This document shows, piece by piece, positions 13,163-43,500 of a stretch of 64,000 nucleotides of DNA. Every line of letters starts with the position of its first letter. Position 1 is the first letter of the stretch. A program made the translations under genes and the position numbers. The notes under the pieces are model-generated. The model made no database searches and was not told the DNA's origin. It worked only from the letters and a program-made list of their open reading frames with translations. Location: NCBI RefSeq assembly GCF_057098645.1, contig NZ_CM169472.1; one strand, given 5' to 3'.

Positions 13163-13206
13163 TGTGTTAACGCCCGGCTTGCCGGGCTTTTAGCTGGAAT
13201 GTGATT

Positions 13207-14109
13207 ATGTTGGCATTTATCCGTTTTCTTTTTGCAGGCCTGCTGCTGGTGATCAGCCACGCCTTTGCCGCCACGGTTCAGGACGAACACGGCACGTTTA
13301 CACTCGAAAAAACGCCACAACGGATTGTGGTGCTGGAACTCTCGTTCGCCGATGCGCTGGCCGCCGTGGACGTCAGCCCGATCGGTATTGCCGACGATAA
13401 CGATGCAAAACGCATCCTGCCCGAAGTGCGTGCGCACCTGAAACCGTGGCAGTCCGTCGGAACGCGCGCGCAGCCGAGCCTGGAAGCCATTGCCGCTCTG
13501 AAACCAGACCTGATCATTGCCGACAGCAGTCGCCATGCGGGGGTTTACATCGCCTTGCAGCAAATCGCGCCGGTACTGCTGCTTAAGTCCCGCAACGAAA
13601 CCTACGCTGAAAATTTGCAATCTGCGGCTATCATCGGCGAAATGGTGGGTAAAAAGCGAGAGATGCAGGCACGTCTGGAACAACATAAAGAGAGGATGGC
13701 GCAGTGGGCCAGCCAGCTTCCCAAAGGGACACGCGTGGCCTTTGGCACATCACGCGAACAGCAATTCAACCTGCATACTCAGGAGACCTGGACCGGCAGC
13801 GTGCTGGCCTCTCTGGGGCTGAACGTTCCCGCTGCGATGGCGGGTGCGTCCATGCCGTCCATCGGCCTGGAGCAACTGCTGGCGGTCAATCCTGCCTGGC
13901 TGCTGGTTGCCCACTATCGCGAAGAGAGCATTGTTAAACGCTGGCAACAAGATCCGCTCTGGCAGATGTTAACCGCCGCGCAGAAGCAGCAGGTTGCTTC
14001 GGTCGACAGTAACACCTGGGCGCGGATGCGCGGTATTTTTGCTGCAGAGCGTATTGCCGCTGACACGGTAAAAATCTTCCACCATCAGCCGCTTACCGTT
14101 GTGAAATGA
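13207..14109 (+). CDS. fecB: Periplasmic ferric citrate binding protein FecB
   Basis: 300 aa from the ATG at 13207 (MLAFIRFLFAGLLLV...), signal peptide. Confidence 0.9.
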   Translation: MLAFIRFLFAGLLLVISHAFAATVQDEHGTFTLEKTPQRIVVLELSFADALAAVDVSPIGIADDNDAKRILPEVRAHLKPWQSVGTRAQPSLEAIAALKPDLIIADSSRHAGVYIALQQIAPVLLLKSRNETYAENLQSAAIIGEMVGKKREMQARLEQHKERMAQWASQLPKGTRVAFGTSREQQFNLHTQETWTGSVLASLGLNVPAAMAGASMPSIGLEQLLAVNPAWLLVAHYREESIVKRWQQDPLWQMLTAAQKQQVASVDSNTWARMRGIFAAERIAADTVKIFHHQPLTVVK

Positions 14110-15104
14110 CCGCGATAAAACACCCGGTGCTGCTGTGGGGGCTTCCCGTTGCAGCACTTATTATTATTTTCTGGCTGAGTCTGTTTTGCTACTCGGCCAT
14201 TCCTGTTTCCGGAGCAGATGCAACCCGCGCCCTGCTGCCTGGACACACGCCAACGCTACCAGAAGCGCTGGTGCAAAACCTTCGTTTGCCACGAAGCCTC
14301 GTCGCCGTTCTGATCGGCGCAAGCCTGGCGCTCGCGGGCACGCTGCTGCAAACCCTGACCCACAACCCAATGGCCTCTCCTTCACTGCTCGGCATTAACA
14401 GCGGCGCGGCGCTGGCTATGGCGCTTACCAGCGCGCTGAGTCCGACGCCGATTGCAGGCTATTCTCTGTCGTTCATCGCGGCATGCGGGGGCGGCGTGAG
14501 CTGGCTGCTGGTCATGACCGCAGGAGGCGGATTTCGTCATACCCATGACAGAAACAAACTGATCCTCGCGGGTATCGCGCTGTCGGCCTTTTGTATGGGC
14601 CTTACCCGCATCACCCTGCTGCTGGCCGAAGATCATGCTTACGGCATCTTTTACTGGCTGGCAGGCGGAGTGTCCCACGCCCGCTGGCAGGATGTCTGGC
14701 AGCTCTTGCCGGTGGTGGTCACTGCAGTCCCTGTCGTGTTGCTGCTGGCGAATCAACTGAACCTGCTCAACCTCAGCGACAGCACCGCCCATACGCTGGG
14801 AGTGAACCTGACGAGGCTACGTTTGGTCATCAATATGTTAGTGCTGCTTCTGGTTGGTGCGTGCGTTAGCGTGGCAGGTCCGGTGGCGTTTATCGGTCTG
14901 CTGGTGCCACATCTGGCGCGCTTCTGGGCAGGCTTCGATCAGCGCAACGTACTGCCAGTGAGCATGCTGCTGGGGGCCACGCTGATGCTGCTGGCAGATG
15001 TACTCGCACGCGCGCTGGCCTTCCCCGGAGATCTGCCCGCAGGCGCAGTGCTGGCGCTGATTGGCAGCCCTTGCTTTGTCTGGCTTGTGAGGAGGCGAGG
15101 ATGA
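14106..15104 (+). CDS. fecC: Ferric citrate ABC transporter permease FecC
   Basis: 332 aa FecCD-family permease, multiple TM helices. Confidence 0.9.
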   Translation: MTAIKHPVLLWGLPVAALIIIFWLSLFCYSAIPVSGADATRALLPGHTPTLPEALVQNLRLPRSLVAVLIGASLALAGTLLQTLTHNPMASPSLLGINSGAALAMALTSALSPTPIAGYSLSFIAACGGGVSWLLVMTAGGGFRHTHDRNKLILAGIALSAFCMGLTRITLLLAEDHAYGIFYWLAGGVSHARWQDVWQLLPVVVTAVPVVLLLANQLNLLNLSDSTAHTLGVNLTRLRLVINMLVLLLVGACVSVAGPVAFIGLLVPHLARFWAGFDQRNVLPVSMLLGATLMLLADVLARALAFPGDLPAGAVLALIGSPCFVWLVRRRG

Positions 15105-25973: not shown

Positions 25974-26543
25974 ATGACCTACAAATACAACCCCTTCTGG
26001 CAGCAACGTATTCGTGAGACGGTGCGGCACGCACTGGATGTTCATCCCCGCCTGACGGCATTGCGGGTTGATCTGCGTCTCCCGGATGTACCGGCAGCAA
26101 CGGACGCGGCTGTGATATCCCGCTTCATCAATGCCCTGAAAGCCCGAATCGACGCTTACCAGAAACGTAAGCATCGGGAAGGTAAACGCGTGCATTCCTC
26201 GACCCTGCATTACGCCTGGGCCCGGGAGTTCGGGGAGCTTAAAGGCAAAAAACACTATCACCTGCTGCTGCTGGTCAACCGGGATACCTGGTGTCGTGCC
26301 GGCGATTACCGCGCTCCGGGGTCACTGGCCGGAATGATTAAACAGGCCTGGTGCAGTGCCCTGGGGGTGGATGCCGGATGTTATGCCACGCTGGTGCATT
26401 TTCCGGTCAGGCCGGCGGTGTGGCTGGAACGCGATGATGAAACCGGCTTTCAGCAGGTACTGGAACGTGCTGGCTATCTGGCGAAGGAGCATACCAAAGC
26501 TCGCGGCACCGGTGAGCGCAACTTTGGCTGTAGCCGGAGTTGA
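25974..26543 (+). CDS. YagK/YfjJ-family protein (annotated in databases as inovirus Gp2-like)
   Basis: 189 aa MTYKYNPFWQQRIRETVRHALDVHPRLTALRVDLRLP...KKHYHLLLLVNRD...; family typical of CP4-like islands. Confidence 0.65.
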   Translation: MTYKYNPFWQQRIRETVRHALDVHPRLTALRVDLRLPDVPAATDAAVISRFINALKARIDAYQKRKHREGKRVHSSTLHYAWAREFGELKGKKHYHLLLLVNRDTWCRAGDYRAPGSLAGMIKQAWCSALGVDAGCYATLVHFPVRPAVWLERDDETGFQQVLERAGYLAKEHTKARGTGERNFGCSRS

Positions 26544-26795
26544 ACACGACAGACGCGCCAATACCCGGCAAACCAAAAGTATGGGTTGTTGTCTGGTGGC
26601 AACGATGTATCCACTCGCCCACTGACTGTTTTTTACGTCAGTGTTCCATTGTGTGACAACCACAATGCTGTAACAGCAACCAGCCTGCTTTACCCAAACT
26701 CCAGTCCAGATTTTAACTGAACCGCCATTCACACCTGACCACGCTGCCCGTACCGGGACGGCTGTTGCCTGCGTGTCGTCTGGCGGCTGAGGAAT

Positions 26796-27203
26796 ATGAC
26801 TATGTACGCAAAATCCTTTCTCGCACTTGATGGCAACGGGCGTCTGACGGGTGCCCGTACCGCACAGACTGCACCTTACGATCGCTACACTTGCCACCTT
26901 TGCGGCAGTGCACTCAGATACCACCCGCAATACGACACTGAGCGTCCCTGGTTTGAACACACTGACGACGGGCTGACAGCGCACGGTCAGCAGTGTCCTT
27001 ATGTCAGACCGGAACGCAGGGAGATACGCTTGATTAAGCGTCTGCAGCAATTCGTACCGGATGCCTTACCCGTGGTGCGTAAAGCCAGCTGGCACTGCAG
27101 ACAATGTCACCACGATTATTATGGGGAGCAGTACTGCACAAACTGCCAGACCGGAGGATTCAGTATTCCCCGGACAACTCGGGAGGAAATATGCGAATTC
27201 TGA
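26796..27203 (+). CDS. Double zinc-ribbon protein with CxxC...PWFEH motif (CoiA-N-terminal-like), paralog 1
   Basis: 135 aa; TCHLCGSALRYHPQYDTERPWFEHTDDG and WHCRQCHHDYYGEQYCTNCQTG; RBS gagga before the ATG. Confidence 0.6.
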   Translation: MTMYAKSFLALDGNGRLTGARTAQTAPYDRYTCHLCGSALRYHPQYDTERPWFEHTDDGLTAHGQQCPYVRPERREIRLIKRLQQFVPDALPVVRKASWHCRQCHHDYYGEQYCTNCQTGGFSIPRTTREEICEF

Positions 27204-27625
27204 ACTGTTATATGGCGAATGACAGCAAGGGGCATTTTGTTACGGCGAAAGAAGCAGCGAAGCACAACCGCCGGGACGTTTTGTGCTGTGTGTCCTGTGG
27301 ATGCCCGTTAACACTTCAGCGGGGCAATGACGGACAACAACCGTGGTTTGAACATGACCAGATGACTGTCGCTGAGAAAATCCTGCTGCGATGCACCTGG
27401 CTTGACCCGGCAGAGAAAGAGGCCCGTCGTTTGCATCTGCAGGGTATGACAGTTCTGGATTATACGGTGAAGGTGAGAAAGTGGTTTTGTGTGATGTGTG
27501 ACGAAGATTATGAAGGAGAAAAGTGCTGCCCGCGTTGTGGTACCGGGGTATACAGCAGGGCGTGGGGGCGGCAGGATGTGCCGTCGGAAGATGCCAGGGC
27601 TGATAATCCGTTACAGAGGTTGTAA
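27191..27625 (+). CDS. Double zinc-ribbon protein with CxxC...PWFEH motif, paralog 2 (overlaps paralog 1 by 13 bp)
   Basis: 144 aa from the ATG at 27191 (RBS gggagg); LCCVSCGCPLTLQRGNDGQQPWFEHDQ and WFCVMCDEDYEGEKCCPRCGTG; same motif order as paralog 1. Confidence 0.6.
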   Translation: MRILNCYMANDSKGHFVTAKEAAKHNRRDVLCCVSCGCPLTLQRGNDGQQPWFEHDQMTVAEKILLRCTWLDPAEKEARRLHLQGMTVLDYTVKVRKWFCVMCDEDYEGEKCCPRCGTGVYSRAWGRQDVPSEDARADNPLQRL

Positions 27626-29012
27626 TGGTTGCCTCTGGCGCAGTTTGCGGTGATGCCGTTCCCGGGAATGGATTGCCAGTGCGGGGACTGTGGAGCTTAA
27701 TTCCGGTGTTGGTGGCCTTTCCGTTGATTTTGAGCCAACAGCCCTCCTGTGACTGACAGGCTGCCTCGTCATTCCATACGTATCTTCAGGTGAACAGATG
27801 CATGTCTGAGCGTACTCACGCAGCCGGCCCGGCAACCGCGGTGGTACTACGCTGGCTGCGAGAAAATACAGAAAGCACCAGAATACGCTCTCCTGTTGCT
27901 GATCAATCAGGATCTCATGCACCTACCGGGATCTAGGGCTAGAACTGATGAAACCGATTCGCACCTGGCTGAGTTAATGCTACAGGCCAGGGCATCACTA
28001 CCCCCTGACGAGCACTGTACTGTGGTATGCAGTTACAGGGGGCGTGTGCAGCCACACCTGAAAGCAGTGAGTCGTTCACGGCATTCAAAAACACGTGCCT
28101 TTCGTTCGCCGTTCCTGTGATGGCCGGCATCATTTGCTAAGCCGTTACCGACGTTATTCCCTCCGGGACACGCCTCTGGTTGAGGCTTTGCCCGGAGCAA
28201 TCGAATGAAAATAAGTTAAGTCACCGAAAGGGAGGATGTAGTCAACCGGGGGAACAGTAATAAGCCGTCGTGCTTTTATCGTACAAGTGTGTTGCGTTTT
28301 GCACCGAAAATACGATAGAGGTCGTTTATGGATTCCGCAGGGAGTGCTGATTATTATTCACTGGCAGCAGACAGCGATGTGTGTGCAGGCATTCAGGGGG
28401 ATGTTGTCAGCAGAAGGGTGCGTATAGCAGATTGTTGTTATACATGGCGTATGAAGTATTACCAGTCATGCGGAGTAGTGTGGTGAGGGGCTGTATGAGA
28501 AATCGCCACCTTCTTGTCAGAGAGGGAACGCTACCATGAAAGTCAAAAGCGATAACGCAGACCGGTACGATCGGTAGGTAAAACTGTAGCGGTGTGCTGC
28601 CGCCGAGGTCAGAATAATCTGCGCGTTTTTACGCCAGCGCCACCGACGAACAGCAGGAGATTGAGGGGAATTTGGCGGCGATAAAGACGTAGAAGAGAAA
28701 AACGGGCAATTTGCCGCATGCCCACAGAATCAGTGAGATCGTTAGCGACAGCAAAATGATCGGCAGCCAGCGGCGGCCTGCAATATCGGGATGAAGGAGA
28801 TCCTACGATATCGATGCTGCACCTGATATGTACGATCAGTAAATAGAGTACGAAACAGCAAACACGACGATAATAACGCTGGCAGCGGTGCCTGTCAGGC
28901 AAACGCCCACACGCAATAAAATAAATCAACCATCGCAGGGCCGTGATCATCCGCATACACCGCTGATGACGCGTCTAAAAACGCGTCAATATGACTTCCC
29001 CGGAACATTACC

Positions 29013-30254
29013 TCATTTCAGGGTATGGAGAATTTTTAACATCGAGTTATCTATGGTCTGTTTGACTTTTTCGTAATAGATCGGTTCAGATAATGACGAA
29101 TCCCAGGTATGAATATCGTTCTTATTAAAAGGAATGCATTTCATGGCTACTGCCTTTAACTGTTTCCCTTTTTGCTCATACTCATTGATATCATTAATGG
29201 TAAATTTCAAACTCTCTTTTCTTGCTTCTGTTATTTCAGTTGGGCATACCAGCTTTATATCTCCTAAGGTAAATGTACTGACCCCGGTGATGAAAAATCT
29301 CTCGGGGATTTCTGTATAGTGCCGAGTATTCCAGATTAAGCCATTAAACATACTATGAGAATGAGTTTTATTTTCGATATAATACTGATGCGTTCTCCAG
29401 TCACTAATGCCTGAGAGACTCATTACCATATTAATGATCATATTTGGGATAGGGCGATACCACATACTGAATACAGTAATTACAACTGGTATGCATATTA
29501 AAACAACTATGAATCCAGTGAATTTATCACCATTTCTGCGCTCATTAAGATGTATGGCACCAGGCAGAATGCCAATAGTAACAATAGCTGCTGTTAAGGC
29601 AAGGAGCATTAGCATTTCAACCAAATCACTTGTCTCCTCACTAAAATCAAGTTGGGTAAGCAGAAATAACATAGGTAATATTTGAACGATCCCGGGAGTC
29701 ATAAATTGCAAGGGTAAAAAACATAACAATCCTGGTTTTCTTGGTAATTTCTCATAGTTATCAGATTTATGCCAACTAAATCTCTTTGTTTTAAATAGAT
29801 TAAAATAGGATACAAAATAACTAAAAGCAAGCATCAATACAAAACCGGTGATACTTATGGAATAACCATTCCATCCATAAAGATAGTAAATATAGTAGCC
29901 AACAATTATACTACAGCATATAAACAAGCTATTTAGATAACAAACAGTGGAAATTCGATGTGGTATGCTTGGATAATTTTTGAAATTATCTTCATGTAAT
30001 GTGTAAATGAGGATTAGAATAAAAGAGGAAATGAAAATTACTAAGCTAAACCCAGAAAACGATACTATTATAAAAACAAAAATGATACCTATGGCTGAAC
30101 TGAGGCTTACAGTATCAAAGAAAATATCTAATCTATCTATGTTTGACAGATAGAACCATATAACAGCCATTGTGCATCCAGTAATAAATGTAGATGAGGT
30201 TATTACTGAAATAATGAATTTTTTATTCAACAGCTTTATGACAGATTTATTCAT
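29013..30254 (-). CDS. AT-rich orphan gene: multi-pass membrane protein (about 8 TM) with a roughly 150 aa C-terminal soluble domain
   Basis: 413 aa ORF with strongly A/T-biased codons, unlike the surrounding DNA; hydrophobic helices through about aa 260; no recognisable catalytic motif. Confidence 0.65.
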   Translation of the reverse strand: MNKSVIKLLNKKFIISVITSSTFITGCTMAVIWFYLSNIDRLDIFFDTVSLSSAIGIIFVFIIVSFSGFSLVIFISSFILILIYTLHEDNFKNYPSIPHRISTVCYLNSLFICCSIIVGYYIYYLYGWNGYSISITGFVLMLAFSYFVSYFNLFKTKRFSWHKSDNYEKLPRKPGLLCFLPLQFMTPGIVQILPMLFLLTQLDFSEETSDLVEMLMLLALTAAIVTIGILPGAIHLNERRNGDKFTGFIVVLICIPVVITVFSMWYRPIPNMIINMVMSLSGISDWRTHQYYIENKTHSHSMFNGLIWNTRHYTEIPERFFITGVSTFTLGDIKLVCPTEITEARKESLKFTINDINEYEQKGKQLKAVAMKCIPFNKNDIHTWDSSLSEPIYYEKVKQTIDNSMLKILHTLK

Positions 30255-30884
30255 AATCCGAATTCCATACCTGATAAAATTCGTATTGTAGTGAGGACCG
30301 ATTTTTTGAGCAACTTATAACCATCGCTTAAAGCTACTTGCTACCATACATGCCGTTATCCCGAACCATAAAGCGCTTGGCAGTAACACCAACATCACAG
30401 ACAGATACTGCGGTTGCGCCAAATAAAAGAATGGCGGATAAGGTCGGCGGATTGCAACGTGATGCTGTGCTGTAGGATGACTTCTGCGGTCTCGTCCAGC
30501 GCCAGCCACTCCTGGCGGATTTTGTGTGGGGGCATGGTGTGTTCCTTTTTGTGTTGTTGGTTGCGTATAGTGCTTGTTGATGATGAAAACCGGTGTGAGA
30601 TATTTTTGCCAAAACAACTAACACTGATCAGTGTAGGTAACGAGCTTTTCAGACATAATATGGTGATGATTTACACTGGAAAAACAGGACGTAACACTGA
30701 ATAGCTCTGGAGACGATTTGCTTGAAGTGGCGTGCTATTTGTTGAAAGAAGAATTTCTGATGATACCTTATTTTAAAGGAGGCTAAAGGGAGAGGAGAGA
30801 GCCCTGTTGAAATCAACAGGACTTAATAGCTCCTCTCCGAAGGGCAAGGAGATCACCCGTGCGCCTGGTTAGGTGAAGAAGTAC

Positions 30885-32078
30885 TCAGCGTGGTTGCAGA
30901 CAGTTATCTTCTTTCCAGCCGTACAGCCACTCCATGCCGCGATAAAACTCTGCCTGCGATTTCCCTTTCCACAGCAGGTTACGAACCTGGCGTTCTACTC
31001 CCGCGGCGTGATAAACCCGTCCCATCTCACGGGTCGACCAGACAATACGCGCGGTGCGCGGAATACGTACCGACTCATACAGCGCAAAGGCTTGCGCCGC
31101 ATCACCCTCACACTGCGCCAGCGCCTTACCCAGCGTTACCGCGTCTTCCAGCGCCATACAGGCACCTTGCGCCATATATTGCGCCACTGGATGGGCTGCA
31201 TCGCCCACCAGCGTAATGCGGTTAGTGCCCCATTTCGCGACTGGTTCACGGTCGGCAGTTGACCAGCGTCGCCATGAAGTCGGTTTATCCAGCATCTGGC
31301 GCGGACGCGGGTGAATCCCCTCAAAGTAAGAGAGCACTTCCTCTTTACTGCCATCCTTCACGCCCCACTCTTCCTGCTGGCGGCTGTGGAATGTCACCAC
31401 CAGGTTATACTGCGTGCCGCCGCGCAAAGGGTAATGCACCAGGTGACAGTGCGGCCCCGCCCACAGTACCGGTGCGTTAATGCGCAAATCTTCCGGCATA
31501 TCGGCACAATCGATAACCGCACGGTAGACAACATGTCCGGTGACACGCGGCGCATCGCCCAATAAGCTCTGGCGCACCACTGACTTCACGCCGTCACAGC
31601 CAATCAGAATATCGCCGGTCCAGCTATTGCCGCGATCGTCAAACACGGTGACATCGTCTTCCGTCTCGCGAATATCCACGACGTTGGTGGAGGTGTGATA
31701 TTCCACGTCCGGATGCGTCAGTACCGCTTCCCACACCGAGGCGTGAATATCAACCCGGTGGATCACCGCGTAAGGACCGCCGAAATGGTCACGAAAGGCC
31801 TGCCCGGTTTCAATGCGCACCACTTCTTCGGCGTTCACCGCATCCATCATGGTAATGTGATCGGTAAACACCGCGCGCTGGCGGGCAACTTCGCCGACGC
31901 CGAGGCTGTCCAGCGCCGAAAACGCATTTGGCCCCAACTGGATGCCCGCGCCAATCTCACCGATCTCATGCGCCTTTTCCAGCAGCACCACTTTGATCCC
32001 CAGGCGGGCCAGTGACAATGCAGTTGCCGCACCGCCGATCCCGCCTCCCACAATTACTGCGCGTGTCACTTTCGTCAT
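30885..32078 (-). CDS. FAD-dependent aromatic monooxygenase, 3-hydroxybenzoate 6-hydroxylase-like (MhbM-like)
   Basis: 397 aa; N-terminal GGGIGG dinucleotide fold; DG and GD motifs of flavin hydroxylases; last gene of a gentisate-pathway operon. Confidence 0.8.
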   Translation of the reverse strand: MTKVTRAVIVGGGIGGAATALSLARLGIKVVLLEKAHEIGEIGAGIQLGPNAFSALDSLGVGEVARQRAVFTDHITMMDAVNAEEVVRIETGQAFRDHFGGPYAVIHRVDIHASVWEAVLTHPDVEYHTSTNVVDIRETEDDVTVFDDRGNSWTGDILIGCDGVKSVVRQSLLGDAPRVTGHVVYRAVIDCADMPEDLRINAPVLWAGPHCHLVHYPLRGGTQYNLVVTFHSRQQEEWGVKDGSKEEVLSYFEGIHPRPRQMLDKPTSWRRWSTADREPVAKWGTNRITLVGDAAHPVAQYMAQGACMALEDAVTLGKALAQCEGDAAQAFALYESVRIPRTARIVWSTREMGRVYHAAGVERQVRNLLWKGKSQAEFYRGMEWLYGWKEDNCLQPR

Positions 32079-32092
32079 TATAGTTCTCCTGG

Positions 32093-32740
32093 TCAGGCTG
32101 AAATTTTATCTTGTTGATTTTCTGGCGCTGCGGCAATGAACGCTGGCAGCTGTGTGCAGGCGTCGTACACCGCTTTGCAGCGTGGATACCCGCTCAAATC
32201 GCAGTTCATGCGTAGCGCGTTTGCCCACTGCGGGACAAGGCAGCAATCTGCCAGCGTCGGCGTCTCGCCCACACAAAATTGCCCCGACTGGTTCTGGCGC
32301 AACAGTTGTTCCACCGCGCTTAACCCTTGCTGGATCCAGTGCGCATACCAACGTTTTTTTTCTTCTTCACTGACGTTCAGTTCTTCGGTCAGGTAGCGCA
32401 GCACGCGCAAGTTATTTAATGGATGAATATCACAAGCGATGGCATAGACAATTTCCAGCACCTTGTTGCGGGCCGGTTCTTCCTGCGGCACCAGCGGAAC
32501 TTGCGGGTAGTGCCTCTCCAGCCAGTCAATAATCGCCAGCGATTGTCCGAGTGATTGGCCCTCGTCAGTCAGCAGCGTCGGCACCAGCCCGACCGGATTC
32601 ATCCGCCGATAGGCCAGTTCATTTTGCTGACCAATACGGATATTCACCCCTTCGGTCTGGTAATTAATGCCTTTCAGCGCCAGCGCAATGCGTACCCGGT
32701 ACGACGCTGAACTATTAAAAAAACTGTACAGCTTCATCAT
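32093..32740 (-). CDS. Glutathione-dependent maleylpyruvate isomerase (GST zeta-like; MhbI-like)
   Basis: 215 aa; GST N-terminal thioredoxin-like fold MKLYSFFNSSASYRVRIALALKGI... Confidence 0.8.
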   Translation of the reverse strand: MMKLYSFFNSSASYRVRIALALKGINYQTEGVNIRIGQQNELAYRRMNPVGLVPTLLTDEGQSLGQSLAIIDWLERHYPQVPLVPQEEPARNKVLEIVYAIACDIHPLNNLRVLRYLTEELNVSEEEKKRWYAHWIQQGLSAVEQLLRQNQSGQFCVGETPTLADCCLVPQWANALRMNCDLSGYPRCKAVYDACTQLPAFIAAAPENQQDKISA

Positions 32741-32745
32741 GCACC

Positions 32746-33447
32746 TCAGACAATCTTCACCGCGATAGGCGTTAAGCCCTCGACGTTGCCTGTGATCACA
32801 TCACCTTTCACTACCGGGCCAACCCCTTCCGGCGTACCGGTGAAGATCAGATCGCCCGGTTGCAGCTCAAAGAAGCCTGACAGATAGCTGATGGTTTCAT
32901 TCACCGACCAGATGAGATGGCGAATATCGCTGCGCTGATGATCTTCGCCGTTAACCTGTAACCAGATTGGCGCATTATCAATACCGCCGATATCGCGGGC
33001 TTTGTGCAGCGGCGCGATGGGCGCTGAGAGATCAAACGCTTTACCGATTTCCCACGGGCGGCCCATCTGGCGCATTTCCATTTGACGGTCACGCCGAGTC
33101 ATATCAAGACCCGTGGCATAACCCCAGACATATTCATGGGCGTGTTCCAGCGGGATATCGCTGCCTTTTTTACCAATCGCCACTACCAGTTCAATTTCGT
33201 AATGATAGTTATCGGTCTGCGCCGGATATGGCAGCGCCAGCGTTTCGCCAGCGGCGACCGGAATAACGGCATCTGCTGGTTTGCAGAAGAAGAAGGGTGG
33301 TTCACGATCCGGATCAAAGCCCATTTCGCGGGCGTGGGCGGCATAGTTACGCCCGACGCAGTAAACGCGACGCACGGGGAATTGTTTATCACTGCCAACA
33401 ACCGGTACGGTAACGGGCGCTTGTGGTTCGAATACATATTGAGTCAT
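32746..33447 (-). CDS. Fumarylpyruvate hydrolase (FAH family; MhbH-like)
   Basis: 233 aa fumarylacetoacetate-hydrolase-family protein. Confidence 0.8.
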
Positions 33448-33462
33448 TTTCTCTCTCCCAAA

Positions 33463-34491
33463 TTAATAACGCGCTTCGCGGAAAAGCCCCAGGGCTTCTT
33501 GTACCGGTCTGTCCGAAAAACTGAATAAAACGGTATCTTGCGTAGTCTGGAATGACACGCCGTGCCAGGTCGGCACCACAAAGATATCTTTTGCACTAAA
33601 GGTGAAGATTTCATTGCCGATGGTGACTTGTCCGCTACCTTCCACTACATGGTAGATAGTGCTGTCAGTGGTGCGCGCCACGCGGGAGGAGAACCCTTTC
33701 GGTAGCAGTTGCAGGAAAGCGCCCATCGACGGCATCGGATAGCCGCCGGTGACCGGGTTGACGTAGCGCATTTTGTAGCCATCCCATTCGTCGGCATCGC
33801 CCATGCGGGTTAAATCGTGCAGCACTTCGCGGCTGCGGTCATAACGATAGTTAAAGATCGGCGAGGAGTTCCCCGTCTGATGGCGCAGCGGCAACATATT
33901 GGCAGCGTAACGCGGCAGGTAATCGCCCTCTTTACGCGTTACCGGTTGTTGATCTTCCGGGTAATCTTCGGCAAAACCGCAGCCCAGAGTGTTCACTAAT
34001 GGCAGATCCAACCCATCGAGCCAGATAACCGGTTCGTCGCCAGGGTTGCCGTGATCGTGCCAGCGCCACTGCGGGGTCAGGATAAAATCGCCCTCATTCA
34101 TTGGCGTGCGTTCGCCGTCAACGGCGGTAAATGCCCCTTTGCCTTCAACAATAAAACGCAGCGCCGACTGGTTATGACGATGACTCGGTGCCACTTCGCC
34201 CGGCATGATCAGTTGCAAACCGGCATATAAAGTCGCGGTGATGGAAGACTGCCCTCGCAGCGCCGGGTTTTCCAGTACCAGCACGCGGCGCACCGCCTCT
34301 TTCGCGCCAATCAGGCTGCCGCTCTCCAGCAGCAGCGGGCGGATCTCCTGATAATTCCAGTACGCTGGCGCACAGTTAGCGTTGGGCGTTTTCGGCACCA
34401 GATGGTGCAGTGACTCCCACAGCGGGGTCAGGTTTTGCCCGGAAATATGCTGATAAAATTGTTCACGGCTATTTTGATTGTTATCAGTCAT
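33463..34491 (-). CDS. Gentisate 1,2-dioxygenase (bicupin; MhbD-like)
   Basis: 342 aa; cupin His motifs (...[14 protein letters not shown]..., ...WRWHDHGN...). Confidence 0.8.
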
Positions 34492-34502
34492 TGGGATGCT
34501 CC

Positions 34503-35861
34503 TTATTCGTTCACAACACCTGCGTGAGGCAGTGAGTCAGGGATAGAGGTCGACTGGCGAACCACGGTGATCAACAGGGTTAACATCACCGCACTGATCG
34601 CCGCAGGCACAGCGATAATGAAAAACAGGGTGTCGAAAGAGAAATTCATCGCCATCATCACGCCGCCAGACAGCGAGCCAACAATCGCGCCGCAGCGGCC
34701 CACGGCGTTTGACCAGCTCACGCCCGTGGCGCGACTTTGTGTTGGATAAAGTGTTGCGGTCAGCGCATTCAGCCCCACCTGCGATCCGCTGATGCCAATG
34801 CCGGTGCCGAAAATCGCCAGCGCCATCAGCCATAATCCATCCTGGCTTAAGCCAATCATCACGATGCATATAGCGCCTGTGGCATAGCTCAGCGCCAGTA
34901 CGCGGAAAGGATTGAACTTATCCATCAGCACGCCCAGCGCCAGCGCGCCCAACGTACCGCCAATCTGGAACGCGGCGGTAACCCAGGAGGCATGTTGCAG
35001 GTCGATGCCGCGATGGTTGAGCAGCGTTGGCATCCAGCTTGAGAGCAGGTAAATAATCAGCAAGCTCATAAAGAACACCACCCACAGCATCAACGTGATG
35101 GGTAACTGACGCCCCATAAACAGTTGACGAATGCTGCCTTTTGTAACGGAGGCTGATTCAATGAGATAAAACTGGGTATCGACATAACGCTCGCGGGTGA
35201 TGGCGCTGACGGTTTTCGCAATCACCGCCTGGGGTAGCTGGCGGCGCACTTGCCAGCGTGGCGATTCCGGCAGAACCACCAGCAGTGCAACAAACAGCAT
35301 CAGCGGTAATACGCCACCCAACACCAGGATCCCGTGCCAGCCAATCACCGGCACCAGCTGCGCGCTGACAATCCCGCCAACCGCCGAACCCAGGGTAAAG
35401 CCGCAAAACATCAGCGTCACCAGCGCGCCGCGGCGGCGGGCAGGCAGATATTCCGAGGTCATGGTGATGGTGTTCGGCATCGCGCCGCCCAGACCCAAGC
35501 CGGTGAGAAAGCGCAGGAAGACCAGAGTTTGCAGATCCGGAGAGAAAGCTGAGGCGAGGCTTAACGCGCCAAACAAAAAGACGCACAGCTCAATCACCCG
35601 CTTGCGACCAAAGCGATCGGACAACGGGCCACAAAGCAGTGCGCCTGCGGTTAACCCCAGCAGACCCGCGCCAAAAAGCGGGGCGAGATCGCCTGCGGTG
35701 AGTTGCCAGTGAGTGCGAATATCAGGGGCGATAAATCCGATAGCCGCGGTGTCAAAACCATCGAGCATTACCACCAGAAAACAGCAGATGATAACGCGCC
35801 ACTGCATCTTGCCGACCGGAGCAGCATCGATAAGTGCTTGTAGATCACGTCGTTGAGTCAT
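34503..35861 (-). CDS. MFS aromatic-acid transporter (3-hydroxybenzoate transporter MhbT-like)
   Basis: 452 aa, 12-TM MFS; first gene of the operon, divergent from a LysR regulator. Confidence 0.8.
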
Positions 35862-35987
35862 AGTAAATGCCTCAGTGCAGGTAAGGTAGATGTTTCTTTT
35901 GTTTTGTATATGTTGCGATATTGTGATTAAAGAGATGAAATGTACAATGGCATTTCGGGCAGAGAGATAACCTGGAGGTTATGGTAA

Positions 35988-36896
35988 ATGGCGAACTGGG
36001 CGCAAAAATTAAAACTACATCACCTTGAAATGCTGGTGGCGTTGGGTGAACAGGGCAATCTGACCCATGTCGCACGAATGATGAATATCACCCAACCTGC
36101 GCTTTCGAAATGGTTGTCACAACTCGAAGATGAGATTGGAATCACACTTTTTGAGCGGCACAGCAAAGGATTACGTCCGACTGAAGGCGGCAAATTGTTA
36201 TTGCAACATGCCCAACGGTTAATCAATGACATGGAGCGATCGCAACATGAACTGGCCCGTTTTAAACAAGGTGGACTGGTCGGCAGTCTGAAAATTGGCT
36301 GTTCTCCCGTCGCCACTGACTGCGTATCCCAGGCGATTTTGCATTTGCTTACGAAGATGCCAACTCTACACCTGAATATCGAAGAGAAGGTGATGACCCC
36401 ATTGCTGCAAGATCTGTTGGCAGGTTCTGTCGACGTGGTCGTTGGGCGAATTGGCGGTCGCGCCTTGCAACTGCCACTGAATTATCAGGTGCTGTACACC
36501 GAGCCAGTATGCTTTGTCGCCAGCCCTGAGCACCCACTGGCGAAATACGCCACCCTCAGTTGGAATGATCTTGCCAACTGGCGCTGGATCGTCTGGCCGA
36601 CGGGTACCCCCATTCGCATTAGTATTGATAATGCGCTGGTAGACCACGGCGTAATGCTGCCAGAAAACACGATTGAGTCGGCGTCGATGAACGTCAGTAC
36701 CAACCTGTTACAAAGCAGCGATATGATCTCTATTTTGTCATTACGCCTGGCGCAACGTTATGCCAGCCAGGGACAACTGGTGATACTCAACCTGCCAAAG
36801 ATAGAACAGAAAGGCAGCGTCGGTGTGTTCTGGCGCAATAACGAAACGCCTTCTTATGCTTTAAGTCAGTTTCTGCACTTTTTACAGCAGAATTAG
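35988..36896 (+). CDS. LysR-family transcriptional regulator (MhbR-like)
   Basis: 302 aa; N-terminal HTH (...LTHVARMMNITQPALSKWLSQLEDEIG...); divergent from the catabolic operon. Confidence 0.8.
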   Translation: MANWAQKLKLHHLEMLVALGEQGNLTHVARMMNITQPALSKWLSQLEDEIGITLFERHSKGLRPTEGGKLLLQHAQRLINDMERSQHELARFKQGGLVGSLKIGCSPVATDCVSQAILHLLTKMPTLHLNIEEKVMTPLLQDLLAGSVDVVVGRIGGRALQLPLNYQVLYTEPVCFVASPEHPLAKYATLSWNDLANWRWIVWPTGTPIRISIDNALVDHGVMLPENTIESASMNVSTNLLQSSDMISILSLRLAQRYASQGQLVILNLPKIEQKGSVGVFWRNNETPSYALSQFLHFLQQN

Positions 36897-37205
36897 TGTG
36901 CTGAACTGGGCATTCGCACGATGTTACTTCCCTGTAATTCAACGATGCGTAATTTTTCGGGGAATCGTGCACTGTGATAAGGCGTGATCTTTCATGGGGT
37001 GAAAATCCCACCAGGTGACTGTCGTTCCAGCCGGTAGCAGTCAAAGCAGTCGTGTGGGTAACAAAGCGGCTGATGTATTTGATGAAGAAGCTGTAGGTGT
37101 TTCAGTGAGTATACAGGTCATAATGTGAGTGAATCTGAGCAGGCCTCGAAAGAACCAATTGGAAGGACAACCCATTAGGAATTCCCAGAAAACAAGACAG
37201 GCATA

Positions 37206-37905
37206 GTGAGATGTGATCTAATTGATTGTGCTAGCAATTTCAAGGATATCACCACTATGCCTGCACGTTCATTATGCCAAAAATTCCTTAAAAACATACT
37301 GGCCACTTTGCATTTCTACCATCAAAAATCACTGATTGACGCAACAAATGCTGTAATAAATGGCGCTTCCCTCACGCTTAGCAGCATCGGGCGTCATTTA
37401 ACCAGACAGCATTAGTTAAAAACAAGATAAAGCGGGTGGATTGACCGTTGGGGAATTCTCAACTGAAAAATGATCTTCCCACCATTTTTCAGTTGGTTAC
37501 TCAAAAAAATACGCTGAGAATGTTCGTGTTGTTGTACGCCTTCGCCAGCAGTGGCAGGATGTTCAGGAGGAGTGTCGGCAGGCAGAGGTCGGATCAGGAG
37601 AGCGGCTGCGTAATGCCCTGCTGAATGTGGATTATACCACCAGTTTTGAACTGCCTTTTCGTCTGCTTTTAACCCGCACGTCACAGCTGATTGCTGTGCT
37701 TTGGGAAGAATGGGATATCAGCCAGAAAAATGTGGTGTTTAACGATAAACGCTTTGGTTGCGTGTATAGCCTGAAGGCCAGTCTTTCCGGCGTGCGGATA
37801 CATTCCGGTATCATCTGTCTCACCGTATTCGCCGGATGGTTGGGAATGAAATACATCATCGCCTTGGCAGCAGATTGCCCGGAAAGTGAAAGCGCTCCGT
37901 GAATG
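37206..37905 (+). pseudogene. IS4-family (IS10-like) transposase remnant, frameshifted and 3'-truncated
   Basis: Fragments ...SLTLSSIGRHLTRQH*, ...VKNKIKRVD*, ...IAVLWEEWDISQKN... in different frames resemble the IS10 transposase N-terminal region (TLTLTELGRNLPTKA..., NIKRIDRLLGN..., IVLVDWSDIREQKR as I recall it). Confidence 0.45.
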
Positions 37906-38082
37906 ACTTAAGTATGCGCTAGAGGAGGGATTACTGGTGACCGCACTGGACGGTCTGTTCTGGTCTGGTAGTCAGCGTATTGCGGAAGATATTCTGTGTC
38001 GTTACGGGGAAGTCATCTTCACAGGGATCTTCAGTCAGTTAGTATTACCGACATTCATTCACCAACTTACCGGAGATAATCG

Positions 38083-38412
38083 ATGTCAAAACCCCGATGG
38101 ACCATTGAACAGAAAAGGCAGCACGTTGCTGCCTGGCGCGCCAGTGGTCTTACACGTCAGCAATACTGTGAACTCAACGATATTCCCTTCACATCACTTC
38201 GCGAATGGCCGCAGGATGTCGCAAAAGCTGAACGCCGGGCAAATGAACCGACCGTTCTTCCCGTTCATATTGCGCCACCACTGCATGCTGATGTACCACA
38301 GCCCGTCACGAATGAGCCAGTCACGCTCTTCCTTCCCGGCGGAGTACGGATGTGCTGTCAGCCGTCACAACTTACCGATGTCTTCAGGGCGCTCAAATAT
38401 GCTCAGTCCTGA
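38083..38412 (+). CDS. IS66-family accessory protein TnpA (Orf1)
   Basis: 109 aa MSKPRWTIEQKRQHVAAWRASGLTRQQYCELNDIPFTSLREW... Confidence 0.75.
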   Translation: MSKPRWTIEQKRQHVAAWRASGLTRQQYCELNDIPFTSLREWPQDVAKAERRANEPTVLPVHIAPPLHADVPQPVTNEPVTLFLPGGVRMCCQPSQLTDVFRALKYAQS

Positions 38413-38791
38413 TAATGTCTTCATCGCGATTAAACCTGTTGACATGCGCCGGGGCATCGACACACTGACGCAGTATATACAGGATGAACTCCGGTCGACA
38501 TGGCATGAGGGAGCCGCCTTCGTCTTTGTTAACAAAGACCGTTCGCGTATCAAAGTTCTCCGGTGGGATAAACACGGGGTGTGGTTGTGTACCCGCCGTC
38601 TTCACAAAGGCAGCTTCCGCTGGCCACGTGCAAATGATGCTGCCTGGCACCTCACTCCCGACGAGTTTAACTGGCTGATTGCCGGTGTTGACTGGCAGCA
38701 GGTTAAGGGACATGGCCTGACGAAATGGGTCTGGCAAAATGAACCTGAACTGCGCCCTGAAAACACGCAAAACACACTGCTAACTCACTGA
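38399..38791 (+). CDS. IS66-family TnpB (IS66 Orf2-like)
   Basis: About 130 aa ...FIAIKPVDMRRGIDTLTQYIQDELRSTWHEGAAFVFVNKDRSRIKVLRWDKHGVWLCTRRLHKGSFRWP...; start overlaps the TnpA stop. Confidence 0.75.
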   Translation: MLSPDNVFIAIKPVDMRRGIDTLTQYIQDELRSTWHEGAAFVFVNKDRSRIKVLRWDKHGVWLCTRRLHKGSFRWPRANDAAWHLTPDEFNWLIAGVDWQQVKGHGLTKWVWQNEPELRPENTQNTLLTH

Positions 38792-38797
38792 AAAATA

Positions 38798-39830
38798 ATG
38801 AATATTCGTATCCGGAGTGGTATGCTCCCCTGTATGGATATCTCCGCTCTCAACACCACGAATGACATCGAAAAACTGCGTGCTATGGCACTTGCCATGG
38901 TACAAAAAGTCATGTCGGAGAATGCCGAAAAAGAGCGGGAATTACTGGAGAAAAGCCGGCGCATCCAGCTTCTGGAAGAAATGCTGAAACTGGTTCGTCA
39001 ACAGCGCTTCGGTAAAAAATGTGAAACGCTGGCTGGTATGCAACGCTCCCTGTTCGAAGAGGATGTTGATGTCGATATCGCCGAGCTCACCGCACATCTG
39101 GATAAACTGCTCCCGCAATCCCCTGAAGAAGACGAAAAAGCGTCCCGTTCACGCCCGATACGCAAACCCTTACCGGCTCATCTTCCACGGGTGGAAAAAA
39201 TTATCCAGCCGGACACTGACCATTGCCCTGAATGTGACGAGCCGCTGCACTATATCCGTGATGCGGTGAGTGAAAAGCTGGAGTATATTCCCGCTCACTT
39301 TGTGGTGAACTGTTATGTCCGTCCGCAATACAGTTGTCCCTGTTGCCAGAAGGTGTTCAGCGGTGAAATGCCGGCACATATCCTCCCGAAAAGTGCCGTT
39401 GAGCCATCAGTCATCGCACAGGTGATCATCAATAAATACGGTGAGCACCTGCCTCTGTATCGCCAGCAACAGGTCTTTGCCCGTTCAGATGTCGGACTGC
39501 CCGTCAGTTCGATGGCTGACATGGTTGGCGCGGCAGGGGCCGCATTATCCCCCCTCGCGGCGTTACTCCATCGCGAATTGATAAGCCGTCCGGTGGTGCA
39601 TGCAGATGAGACTACCCTGAAGATCCTGAACACGAAGAAAGGCGGTAAATCCTGCTCCGGTTATCTGTGGGCATACGTCAGTGGAGAAAGGACGGGACCG
39701 TCAGTTGTGTGCTTCGACTGCCGGACCGGACGTAGCCATGAGTATCCTGAAAACTGGCTTCAGGGCTGGGGCGGGACGCTGGTTGTCGACGGACATAAAG
39801 CTTACCGGACTCTGGCAAACAAAGTGCCGG
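38798..39830 (+). pseudogene. IS66-family transposase TnpC, N-terminal about 340 aa only (zinc finger + first two DDE motifs), 3' end replaced
   Basis: RFGKK, PLPAHLPR, CPECDEPL...CPCCQK, HLPLYRQ, VHADETT, GYLWAYV and VVDGHKAY motifs in IS66 order; similarity ends near aa 340; the conserved C-terminal GRKNW region is absent. Confidence 0.7.
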
Positions 39831-40441
39831 AGCTGGCGAATATCATCGGTCATCACGCGGGTATTGATGACAATACAGCGGCAAAAGCCATTGCCCATGC
39901 CATTCTCGGTGGTGTGACAGCAGCCCTTCAGGGCAACAGTGCGGCAGCAGGCGCAATTGGTGCGGGTACTGGTGAAGTGATCTCGTCAGCCATTGCGAAA
40001 AGCCTCTACCCGGACGTAGATCCGTCGAAACTGACAGAAGATCAGAAGCAAACCGTAAGCACGCTGGCAACGCTGTCAGCGGGTATGGCTGGCGGCATTG
40101 CCAGTGGCGATGTGGCTGGCACAGCTGCAGGGGCTGGTGTTGGGAAGAACATTGCTGAGAATAACTTGGTTGGTGGCACAGAGTCCGAGCAGAGCAAAGC
40201 TGCTCAGACGCATGGCGCAGATGTACTTTCCTGTAACGATGCTCCAGGCGGTGAAGCCTGTAAGCGAGGAGAAGCAGTCAATAAAGCGTATGCCGGAGCG
40301 TTGGCCACTGGTAGTGTAGCTCTCTTACCTGGCGGTGCTCAGGCCATGTGGGCTCTTGGCACAGGTGCAAATGCAGGAATTGGTTACATGGTAGATAGTT
40401 CAGTTGATCCTGAAAATGCAATCATTGCAGGATGGGTCTGA
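39831..40441 (+). other. Polymorphic-toxin-like fragment in frame with the truncated tnpC: Gly/Ala-rich pretoxin region with ENN motif (KNIAENN) plus about 90 aa glycine-zipper-like C-terminal piece; stop supplied by the IS629 terminal TGA
   Basis: ...SLYPDVDPSKLTEDQKQTVSTLATLSAGMAGGIASGDVAGTAAGAGVGKNIAENNLVGG... resembles CdiA pretoxin (PT-VENN) regions; the ORF ends exactly at the IS629 boundary (40439-40441). Confidence 0.45.
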
Positions 40442-40480
40442 ACCGCCCCGGGTTTCCTGGAGAGTGTTTTATCTGTGAAC

Positions 40481-41371
40481 TCAGGCTGCCAGATCATCGT
40501 TTCCGATGGAAGCATAATAAGCTTTTTCTGCTTCTGCCGGAGGAGTATGGCCCAGCCTTTCCAGCAATCGTCGATTGTTATACCAGTCCACCCACGTGAG
40601 TGTGGCCAGTTCCACTTCTGCACGGTTTTTCCAGCTCTTACGGTGTATTACCTCCGCTTTGTAAAGACCATTGATGCTCTCCGCCATCGCGTTGTCATAC
40701 GAGTCGCCTGTACTTCCTGTTGATGCCAGTAATCCGGCTTCCTTAAGCCGCTGTGTGTAGGCCAGCGATACATACTGAGAACCTTTATCACTGTGATGGA
40801 CCGTGCCGGACGGTCGACGGGCCCATAACGCCTGCTCCAGTGCATCCAGCACGAATGTCGTCTCCATGGACGATGAGACCCGCCACCCCACAATGTATCC
40901 GGCAAACACATCAATGATGAACGCCACATAGACGAAGCCCTGCCATGTGCTGACGTAAGTAAAATCAGCCACCCACAGCTGGTCAGGTCGTTCTGCCACG
41001 AACTGACGGTTTACGCGGTCGCCTGCGGCAACGGCTTTCCGGCTGATGGTCGTACGGACCTTTTTACCCCGGAGAACACCGGCAAGTCCCATAACCGCCA
41101 TGAGACGTGCCACAGTGCATCTGGCCACTCTGATACCTTCCCGTAACAACTGACGCCAGACTTTACGCACACCGTATACCTTGTGATTTTCATCGTATAC
41201 GCGCTGTATCTCTTTCTTCAGCCAGTCATCGCGCTGCGCACGGGCACTGCGTTTATCCGGATGATGTCGCTGTTGCTGACAGTGGTAATACGTTGACGGG
41301 GCAATATGCAGTTCGCTGCATAGCGGTCCGACCCCGTACTGCTCACGCAGCTTATCCAGCAGTGGCATCAT
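40481..41371 (-). CDS. IS629 OrfB
   Basis: Identical 296 aa translation to 18174-19064. Confidence 0.9.
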
Positions 41372-41694
41372 TTTTTCCAGAGGCGGTCGAACTCCGCCTT
41401 CGCAAAATAAGCGGAAGCCTGGCGAAGGATATCGTTACTGCGGCGCAGTTCACGATTTTCACGCTCCAGCTCTTTCAGACGCTGACGTTCAGCGGTGGTG
41501 AGCCCTCCATCACCGCCCCCGGTATCCCGCTCATGCTGGCGAACCCAGACACGCAGAGTCTCCGGCGTACAGCCAATCTTTGGAGCAATGGAACAAATTG
41601 TCGCCCATTGTGAGTCATATTCGCCCTGACTTTCCAGAACCATACGGACTGCCCGTTGACGGACTTCAGGGGAAAAACGAGTATTTTTAGTCAT
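41368..41694 (-). CDS. IS629 OrfA
   Basis: Identical 108 aa translation to 17851-18177. Confidence 0.9.
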
Positions 41695-41745
41695 CCTGTT
41701 TACCTCTTTCTCAGGAAGTTTAGTCTCCAGGATTCCCGGGGCGGT

Positions 41746-42156
41746 TCAATCAGTGTTTACTTCCCTGGCCTCGCTACCATTGGTATAGCTACTACAGTCT
41801 TCATCACTGCCACGCTCATTCTCACAGACATGTTTCTCGACCTTTCCAAGATATCTGACGCCTTTTCGCGGAATGGTTTTAATTAGAGAACTCGACAAAC
41901 CAGCGATGTCTAATGCCTTTCTAAGCATGTAAATCTGCCCATAATAACTGCTGTCGCTTACCGAACCTTTCTGCTCCCGCCAAACCTCATTGATAATATG
42001 TTGCTTATCGGATTCTCCCTGTAGTAAAAGGAGTAAAAATCGATAGCCGTTTTCAGACAGATTAATTACATTGCCTGTACTGGTGGTGATACGTCGAGAC
42101 GCTGGGTAAAACTTAACTCCCTGCCCTAAAGAAAAATAAAAACGGTCATCGCTCAT
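41746..42156 (-). pseudogene. ToxR/CadC-like winged-helix (OmpR/PhoB-type) transcriptional regulator, N-terminal 136 aa; 3' end truncated by IS629
   Basis: ...NGYRFLLLLLQGESDKQHIINEVWREQKGSVSDSSYYGQIYMLRKALD...IKTIPRKGVRYLG... winged-helix pattern; the stop codon is the IS629 terminal TGA. Confidence 0.55.
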
Positions 42157-43500
42157 AAGTACCGAACCCTGTTTTCTTCTTCACATGACTACTCATTACA
42201 ACTTTGTATGAAGTAAGATGCAAAATCATATTGTTTACATTAAGTTAAGCAATTATACCGTTTAAACAAAGACAATACGTCTCTTTATTTCTCATAAAAC
42301 CCCAATCCCTTACAGGGCTTATTGAAAATTTAAAAATCACAAATTTCTCAATACTAAAAATGAGATCACATAAGAAATCAAAAAACCTTCTCATCTATTT
42401 TAAGTTTTCCCAACGTAAAATAAGAGCTTTTATTAATAACTGAACCACTTTACTGTTCTATTTGTTCAGGTATTGTATTACGGTGTGCTGAGATCCATAG
42501 GTGCATCCCTGTATCCCGCGATGAGACTAAAATAGTCGTGATTTAAGCTCGTATCAGATTCTTAGTGAATACCACATTTGTTATAATTAAGTGAAAAGAT
42601 ACATTGCTGATTTACATTTTTTGGTTTACAAAATGTCATCACTTACAGAGTTATCGCTGACATATACCTTTAATCTCTTAATCCTTTCGTGTTATTGCAA
42701 TACAACCATCCATAAAGCAGGCTATTTTTAGCAGGAAATACTCAGGTGTCAACATTCGAACCCCAACCCTGAAATATTCATATAAATTAATGATTTTTTC
42801 ATTTATTCACACCTAATCAAAGTATTCAAATTCAGATGATTTTTCTGCTCAACAGACACAAACAGGCAATAATACTCTCCAAAGCGAACAATATTTGGCA
42901 TTACGATTTAATGCTTCATAATCACCAAATCATTTAACTATAAATTTTCTTATTTTTAACGAAATGGTTGGTGTTTTTTTGGAATTAAAAACATACATAA
43001 TATTAACATCTACCGACATTTCACTTTCCGAAAGACGAATGATTTCGAATCCTCATCTACGTTCTCCCATCCCAAATATCTTTATTAATAGGCAGTACGA
43101 ACACTGTTATAGCAAGATTACCTTATTAACCTAATGGAATCCTTTATGTAACAAGTGAAAATAAATTCCTTAAAATTGATTCTCAGCAAATCTTAAAAGT
43201 TCTCATTATTCTGCAAAATCAGCTTTGCGAATAATCTTATGTTTTTGGGAATTTTGATCTGCTCATTGCTCTCGTGAAAAATACAAACAAGAGAAAAAAC
43301 GCCATTCGTCATGAAAAGAACAGACGTAGCAATGTAATAACATACTAAAATTGATCTCATGAAAGTGGGTGCTTTATAACCAGCACAGAAGCTCAGACGT
43401 ATAAATATTAAACAATTTGCATTGTAAAACGGAGACTATGTATTAAGAAGCCAATCGTAAAAACGGTTCCCTGGCGAGATAAACGACAAACAAATGGAAA

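Follow-up and report, generated by a model that had tools for sequence, protein, structure and literature searches.

The alpha-helical CDI ionophores (Halvorsen 2024, PLoS Genet, PMC11630599) are built from an N-terminal entry domain, which hijacks an inner-membrane protein, and a C-terminal five-helix domain. A glycine zipper in helix alpha4 is the only motif found to be universal to these toxins, their CdiI immunity proteins are two-helix hairpins of 72-100 aa, and the family has no database designation (PMC11630599). In case of the intact group 6 toxin, CdiA delivers the toxin tip (CT) to the periplasm of a neighbouring cell and cleavage takes place after VENN. The 54-residue entry domain then hijacks the di/tripeptide permeases DtpA/DtpB, the five-helix glycine-zipper ionophore domain enters the inner membrane and collapses the membrane potential, and a 72-aa two-helix CdiI neutralises the toxin (PMC11630599). 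Depolarisation of target cells and the requirement for DtpA or DtpB have been shown for CT-M15 and CT-O91:H8. Exact N-terminal processing is required by the group 6 toxins, one extra N-terminal residue being enough to abolish the activity, and receptor-dependent toxicity has been reported from the cytosolic side (PMC11630599). The second closely related system is the orphan cdiA-CT/cdiI module (Poole 2011, PLoS Genet, PMC3150448), which is a cdiA 3' fragment lacking promoter and start, accompanied by its cdiI and located downstream of cdiBAI. Disruption of such orphan modules by IS elements and transposons was already noted in 2011 (PMC3150448).

In our study, a stretch of 64,000 nucleotides (the window) has been analysed around a short segment which a sequence-only reading had described as an orphan toxin-like fragment. 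This segment is very probably what is left of an orphan cdiA-CT/cdiI module of the group 6 ionophore type, truncated at both ends and without function, lying in a tRNA-Phe-associated island. The segment is real and was correctly placed by that reading. Its end was given exactly, its start (39831) was at most 5 nt from the true start of the cdiA sequence (39826-39832), and it is in the same frame as the ORF 38798..40441(+). This ORF has 547 aa and encodes the peptide which had been quoted. The point missed earlier is that the fragment is not free-standing and forms the 3' part of a tnpC chimera, the parts of which are as follows.

38083-38412, + strand: ISEc49 tnpA (gene calls in the identical loci L010/L011; RefSeq collinear loci)
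38399-38791, + strand: ISEc49 tnpB (gene calls in the same two loci, with a Pfam match to TnpB_IS66; RefSeq collinear loci)
38798..39825, + strand: 5' part of ISEc49 tnpC, codons 1-343, cut in the middle of the DDE domain (Pfam)
39826..39832, + strand: fusion junction, a 7-bp microhomology GCCGGAG common to ISEc49 tnpC and cdiA (four-way DNA alignment)
39833..40153, + strand: cdiA pretoxin region, comprising the DUF637 end and most of PT-VENN (Pfam; nucleotide identity)
40154..40327, + strand: CdiA-CT residues 1-58, comprising AENN (40154-40165) and the group 6 entry domain (tblastn coordinates; H22 identity)
40328..40438, + strand: CdiA-CT residues 59-95, comprising the predicted ionophore helix alpha1 and the larger part of alpha2 (comparison with the intact 224-residue CT)

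The front of the chimeric ORF corresponds to codons 1-343 of the tnpC gene of ISEc49, an IS66-family element, in frame with the cdiA part. Pfam places LZ_Tnp_IS66, zf-IS66 and DDE_Tnp_IS66 on residues 59-341, and the DDE_Tnp_IS66 match covers model positions 2-143 of 284 only. The accessory genes tnpA and tnpB (38083..38791, +) were found directly 5' of the chimera and share 98% nucleotide identity with the intact ISEc49 of CFT073. The ATG start of the chimera comes directly after tnpB, inside the IS66 operon, from which the 547-aa protein may be translated; a promoter and terminator scan gave counts close to those expected from shuffled sequence. In RefSeq, the chimeric ORF goes under the name "IS66 family transposase". 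A mechanical ORF of 284 aa (37937-38791, +) lies across the ISEc49 genes tnpA and tnpB in a different frame and is almost certainly no gene.

The fusion junction was located by a four-way alignment of the window with ISEc49 from CFT073 and with cdiA from H22 and from Z142-6. The window diverges from intact ISEc49 after 39832, and 39826-40438 is cdiA-derived. The 5' fusion thus reads as an illegitimate-recombination junction within tnpC, where no IS end is present. Positions 39826-40164 show 96% DNA identity to annotated full-length cdiA genes, and positions 39826-40377 about 97% nucleotide identity to many cdiA genes, that of E. coli H22 among them. At the protein level, the last 44 positions of DUF637 are matched by residues 345-389 of the chimeric ORF (Pfam, E=2e-4) and PT-VENN (PF04829) by residues 409-457 (i-E=1.5e-12), with the AENN motif at 40154-40165 closing the PT-VENN domain. 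These matches lie far beyond chance. A PT-VENN domain ending in (V/A)ENN and upstream continuity with conserved CdiA (DUF637) are the marks of a CdiA-CT, and both were found here. Hence, the earlier suggestion of a pretoxin region of PT-VENN type was borne out by the profile search, with CdiA as its origin.

The toxin tip can be assigned by its sequence to the group 6 / type 10 alpha-helical CDI ionophores, using the published table, the primer sequences and the pairwise comparison with H22. In this comparison, the entry domain (residues 1-58) was identical at 58/58 positions to the CT of E. coli H22 CdiA WP_019842636.1, whereas residues 59-95 were 68% identical and residues 96-224, taken from the intact allele, 63% identical. 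The published S1 Appendix lists WP_019842636.1 (H22) and WP_088459632.1 (Z142-6) in its group 6 block, together with the strains PSU-1135, NS-NP014, TMP022059 and VREC0506 (PMC11630599). Primer CH6273, named 'M15-L58', encodes ATGSVALL as the end of the CT-M15 entry domain (PMC11630599), and the window matches this peptide and its L58 boundary. Moreover, the published O91:H8 cdiI primer (PMC11630599) encodes MKCQSL, which is the start of the CdiI ORF following Z142-6 cdiA. The Z142-6 locus was also considered as EC93-type and this was rejected, since the published primers show it to be of the O91:H8 (group 6) type.

In NCBIfam, no match was found for the intact CT, the stump or CdiI, which agrees with the remark on the missing database designation in PMC11630599. 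Pfam, too, had no match to the intact 224-residue CT even at E<=10, and the PDB sequence-profile search with the CT gave a chance match only (E=0.65). Homologues of the tip were found in 187 proteins at E<=1e-3 in 90%-identity clusters and in 563 clusters at the 50%-identity level. Those carrying a name are mostly VENN, adhesin or hemagglutinin proteins, and they come from many Enterobacterales and beyond. In the distant homologues, conservation is seen C-terminal to residue about 59 and the N-terminal parts vary, which fits the modular entry-plus-toxin design. The EC93 group 1 signatures PEGQDP and PAVGTVA are absent from all 295 retrieved proteins, so that the link to EC93 comes solely from the published PSI-BLAST classification.

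After AENN, 91 residues of the toxin tip are left in the window and CT residues 96-224 are gone. The entry domain is complete, ending in ...ATGSVALL58 (residues 51-58), and both Cys27, which is invariant, and Cys36, which is nearly invariant, have been kept. Of the five predicted ionophore helices, only about the first 1.5 are retained (residues 59-95). The AF2 run on a shallow alignment had a mean pLDDT of 40 and was found to be unusable; the run on a diverse 45-sequence alignment had a mean pLDDT of 55 (57-79 over residues 21-100) and was used for secondary structure only. For the intact CT, this second run predicted entry-domain helices at residues 10-24 and 34-51 and, at moderate to low confidence, ionophore helices at residues 60-81, 86-98, 103-121, 126-158 and 195-222. 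According to this model, the IS629 break might fall inside the second of the five ionophore helices.

The pattern GxxxGxxxG was found only at residues 134-146 of the intact CT, past the break, and the retained 95 residues show merely small-xxx-small patterns, e.g. ALGTGANAG. The small-residue run GALATGSVALLPGGAQAMWALGTGANAGIGYMV corresponds to the end of the entry domain and helix alpha1. The window copy, which ends at residue 95, is thus devoid of the five-helix ionophore domain and of the helix-alpha4 glycine zipper. The glycine-zipper-like domain proposed by the sequence-only reading needs correction, as the real zipper lies beyond the break and residues 1-58 form the entry domain. Its idea of a membrane-active tip was right as to the family, which is that of the alpha-helical CDI ionophores, but the roughly 90 residues seen here are not the pore domain.

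The complete form of the locus is present in about 20 complete genomes besides those of E. coli ML35, M15 and DLI.6n; in all of these, the tnpC'::cdiA fusion encodes a 664-aa protein and the tip from AENN on has 224 residues (loci L001/L003/L007). A 72-aa cdiI (WP_000611256.1) lies directly 3' of the intact CT, in an ATGA overlap with the CT stop codon (L001 7000-7218; L003 10126-10344; L007, which is ML35, 14342-14560). This CdiI has two hydrophobic stretches, with Kyte-Doolittle 15-residue averages of about 2.0 (8-28) and about 1.0-1.2 (58-63), and it is 32% identical to H22 CdiI, as described for within-group pairs in PMC11630599. The database entry WP_000611256.1 is labelled just 'hypothetical protein' despite its presence on at least 1000 contigs. 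Further 3' in the relatives, a frameshifted EC869-o11-type DNase CT and CdiI-o11 are followed by a restriction-endonuclease remnant and a degenerate IS3-family element, and the far end carries a small ORF, fecEDCBARI, an integrase and tRNA-Phe. The contig counts were at least 350 for the intact fusion, at least 1000 for the 72-aa cdiI ORF and 8 drafts for the truncated allele.

In the 64-kb window, no CT residues 96-224, 72-aa CdiI, H22 CdiI, CT-o11 or CdiI-o11 were found by blastn and tblastn. The window also contains no cdiB, no full-length CdiA with a TPS domain and no cdiBAI locus, and tblastn of 1299 CdiA residues against it gave a match at 39827-40438 only. The earlier remark that the expected immunity gene is missing was thus upheld, as IS629 adjoins the stump and tblastn gives no cdiI match in the 64-kb window. 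Extrapolated from these 64 kb, cdiI would be lost from the whole genome.

Everything from tRNA-Phe to the toxin stump belongs to a genomic island associated with this tRNA gene. Its main features and the two IS629 copies are as follows; strands are given for the IS629 copies only.

6585-6660: tRNA-Phe(GAA)
6858-8120: tyrosine-integrase-sized ORF
9280-16825: fecIRABCDE ferric-citrate operon
17797..19106, + strand: IS629 copy a, 100% identical to copy b and inverted (alignment)
19107..40438: inverted 21.3-kb segment with the toxin stump at one end (blastn blocks against ML35)
30885-35861: mhb/gentisate cluster
35988-36896: LysR regulator
40439..41748, - strand: IS629 copy b, 1310 bp, with orfA 41368-41694 and orfB 40481-41371 (sequence, ORFs)

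Position 40438 closes the last toxin codon, and the first 3 bases of the IS629 terminal repeat TGAACCGCCCCGGG serve as the TGA stop codon (40439-40441). The fragment is therefore cut off by IS629, as had been read from the letters, with its stop codon supplied by the IS629 end at 40439. The equivalents of copy b are annotated in RefSeq as 'IS3-like element IS629 family transposase'. Exactly this 547-aa protein is encoded on 8 draft-assembly contigs which are independent of one another, and each of them stops in the IS629 repeat; hence the CT/IS629 junction is genuine and no assembly artefact. The exact junction was found in 0 of 5,426 complete RefSeq E. coli genomes, and it is lineage-restricted. 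An apparent full-length match in strain M15 was rejected, as it consisted of two joined pieces with IS629 further downstream.

The left flank of copy a corresponds to the sequence 3' of the orphan cdi array in the relatives (IS3' remnant, small ORF, fecE), and its right flank is a truncated YfjI-family gene. In the blastn comparison, ML35 (L007) 1-11125 corresponds to window 6672-17797 in direct orientation and ML35 14947-33406 to window 40438-19104 in inverted orientation, and the 3,821 bp at ML35 11126-14946 are absent from the window. This loss takes CT codons 96-224, cdiI and the CT-o11/cdiI-o11 orphan module. When the inversion is undone, the stump lies one IS629 away from sequence which is 3.8 kb further on in ML35, and this argues that cdiI was deleted and not moved. 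The toxin 3' end, cdiI and the o11 module have thus most probably been deleted rather than moved, and the inversion came about separately, when the two IS629 copies recombined with each other. No target-site duplications were found at either copy, in the direct or in the inversion-swapped configuration, so that the order of insertion, deletion and inversion is one which we infer. Their absence at identical inverted copies also points to several IS629-mediated deletion/inversion events. The sequence-only reading had supposed that an IS629 rearrangement displaced the immunity gene; a 21.3-kb inversion is indeed present, but cdiI looks deleted with the 3,821-bp interval.

Other changes were observed around the two copies. 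IS629 copy a has removed about 200 nt from the 5' end of the YfjI-family gene at 19107-20391, and the mechanical ORF 18922-20391 begins inside this copy. At about 22054-24692, the window has a 2.6-kb insertion relative to ML35, which is an IS21-family element with a transposase ORF at 22175-23821 (NCBIfam transpos_IS21, E=1e-84); its second ORF, 23595-24593, is probably istB. Beyond copy b, a winged-helix (HilA/YgeH-like) regulator (41746-42156, -) is truncated by IS629 to 136 aa against 201 aa in O145:H28 RM12761, and the Flp/tad pilus genes which precede the regulator in RM12761 are missing from the window. The regulator region 41749-43400 next to glcA is present in 37 of 5,426 complete E. 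coli genomes, mostly O145:H28. In O145:H28 RM12581 (L008 3494-3550), an IS629 breakpoint lies inside tnpC (window-equivalent 39794), and in RM12761 (L006 1069-1071) it lies just after the LysR gene (window-equivalent 37250); both remove the toxin stump entirely. Given these differing O145:H28 breakpoints, the island locus is a recurrent target of IS629.

A history in three steps can be proposed for the locus. Recombination at the 7-bp microhomology would have joined the middle of ISEc49 tnpC to about the last 330 codons of cdiA, by which the secretion and receptor-binding parts would have been lost and the 664-aa TnpC'-CdiA-CT chimera, still common in E. coli, would have been formed. Further, IS629 would have inserted after CT codon 95 in the lineage of the window, and an IS629-associated deletion of 3.8 kb would have removed CT codons 96-224, cdiI, CT-o11/cdiI-o11 and the neighbouring remnants. 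Finally, recombination between the identical inverted IS629 copies would have flipped the 21.3-kb segment ending in the stump. Both this order of events and the loss of function of the stump are drawn from the arrangement of the DNA.

Concerning function, the stump is not exportable because the TPS domain and CdiB are absent. It should also be unable to form a pore, as three and a half of the five ionophore helices would be gone. A chimera which is neither exported nor pore-forming needs no immunity gene, and as the pore-forming part was lost together with cdiI, the loss of cdiI would be harmless to the cell itself. The intact chimera is probably inert in the cytosol as well, because one extra N-terminal residue abolishes the group 6 activity according to the literature.

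Other explanations of the segment have been weighed against this reading. It is unlikely that the toxin 3' part and cdiI were moved by IS629 elsewhere in the genome, to a place beside a further IS629 copy. Such a displacement would be compatible with the IS629-mediated inversion at the same junction, with the lack of target-site duplications at both copies and with the 20-40 IS629 copies held by each of the EHEC-type related genomes, our view covering 64 kb of the genome. However, with the inversion undone a single IS629 stands in place of the 3,821 bp of ML35, which is the signature of a simple deletion, and the flanks of the second IS629 copy do not contain the missing DNA. The sequence-only reading had itself named the case which would go against it, that of a small-residue-rich low-complexity sequence unrelated to polymorphic toxins. 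The high Gly/Ala content and the part after AENN, which has no Pfam or NCBIfam match, would suit such a sequence, yet the PT-VENN match at E=1.5e-12, the 96-97% DNA identity to full-length cdiA and the 187 homologues at E<=1e-3 (563 representative clusters), nearly all of them VENN/adhesin/hemagglutinin where named, leave it practically no chance of being true.

A gain of function by TnpC'-CdiA', for instance as a cytoplasmic decoy against group 6 ionophores or as a regulator of IS66 transposition, is exceedingly improbable. The intact ORF with its ATG directly after tnpB in the IS66 operon, the complete entry domain and the receptor-dependent toxicity reported from the cytosolic side (PMC11630599) may be taken in its favour, whereas a single additional N-terminal residue already inactivates the entry domains of group 6, the allele is rare (8 contigs, the intact fusion being on at least 350), and the breakpoint is a plain IS629 end with no sign of selection. 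A related proposal concerns the intact 664-aa chimera, which is 100% identical across unrelated E. coli lineages (at least 350 contigs). It is very unlikely that this chimera and cdiI form an addiction-like, island-stabilising pair driven by the IS promoter, or that its entry domain serves as an intracellular DtpA/DtpB decoy; if either were true, the IS629 truncation would have released the lineage from that function or reshaped it. The reading as a non-functional orphan remnant is hence retained for the window.

Taken as such a remnant, the stump is degraded genomic debris of an already known kind, its toxin family having been published in 2024 (PMC11630599) and the orphans in 2011 (PMC3150448), and it matters little beyond annotation. 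For annotation, the label "IS66 family transposase" hides a CdiA ionophore stump here, and elsewhere the same label hides a complete toxin with an unannotated immunity gene in hundreds of E. coli genomes. As the 72-aa CdiI and CdiI-o11 have been lost, the strain should be susceptible to neighbours which use the corresponding toxins. The locus also illustrates cleanly the erosion of orphan toxin arrays by IS66 and IS629 in a tRNA-Phe island.

In comparison with the IS629 events of EHEC-type E. coli, the window locus shows nothing unusual, as in both cases identical inverted copies bound an inversion, genes are truncated and target-site duplications are absent. The EC93 CdiA-CT (group 1, AcrB-dependent) belongs to the same published class, which dissipates the membrane potential and has an entry domain, a five-helix domain and a small membrane CdiI. 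Its entry domain and receptor are different, and the reported identity between groups is about 20-39%.

Like the orphan modules EC869 o1-o11 and EC93 o1 (Poole 2011, PLoS Genet, PMC3150448), the window contains a cdiA 3' fragment with pre-VENN sequence, and as in the EC869 orphans the next module in tandem in the relatives is an EC869-type DNase pair, CT-o11/CdiI-o11. Typical orphans have no translation initiation signals (PMC3150448), whereas the window fragment has gained a start codon via tnpC. Unlike the EC869 and EC93 orphans, it has no cdiBAI within the 64-kb window and its cdiI has been lost. The module before o11 also differs from EC869 o10, being a group 6 ionophore, and the cdiI here begins with MINVLFA, in contrast to the MKLINPL encoded by the cdiI-o10 primer.

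The closest resemblance in the tip is to the group 6 ionophores CT-M15, CT-PSU-1135 and CT-O91:H8 (Halvorsen 2024, PLoS Genet, PMC11630599). The entry domain is 100% identical to the H22/PSU-1135 type, with the same L58 end as CT-M15 and the same Cys pair, and the ionophore domain is homologous. A GYGxGK glycine zipper is found in the intact relatives of the window allele, and the CdiI of these relatives has 72 aa, two hydrophobic helices and ~32% identity to H22 CdiI. In contrast to the group 6 toxins, the window keeps residues 1-95 of 224, without alpha3-alpha5, the zipper and cdiI, and its stump is attached to a transposase fragment and not to a CdiA of roughly 3000 residues. The intact ionophore domain of the window allele is moreover a distinct variant, which over residues 96-224 shares 63% identity with H22 and 50% with the O91:H8 type.
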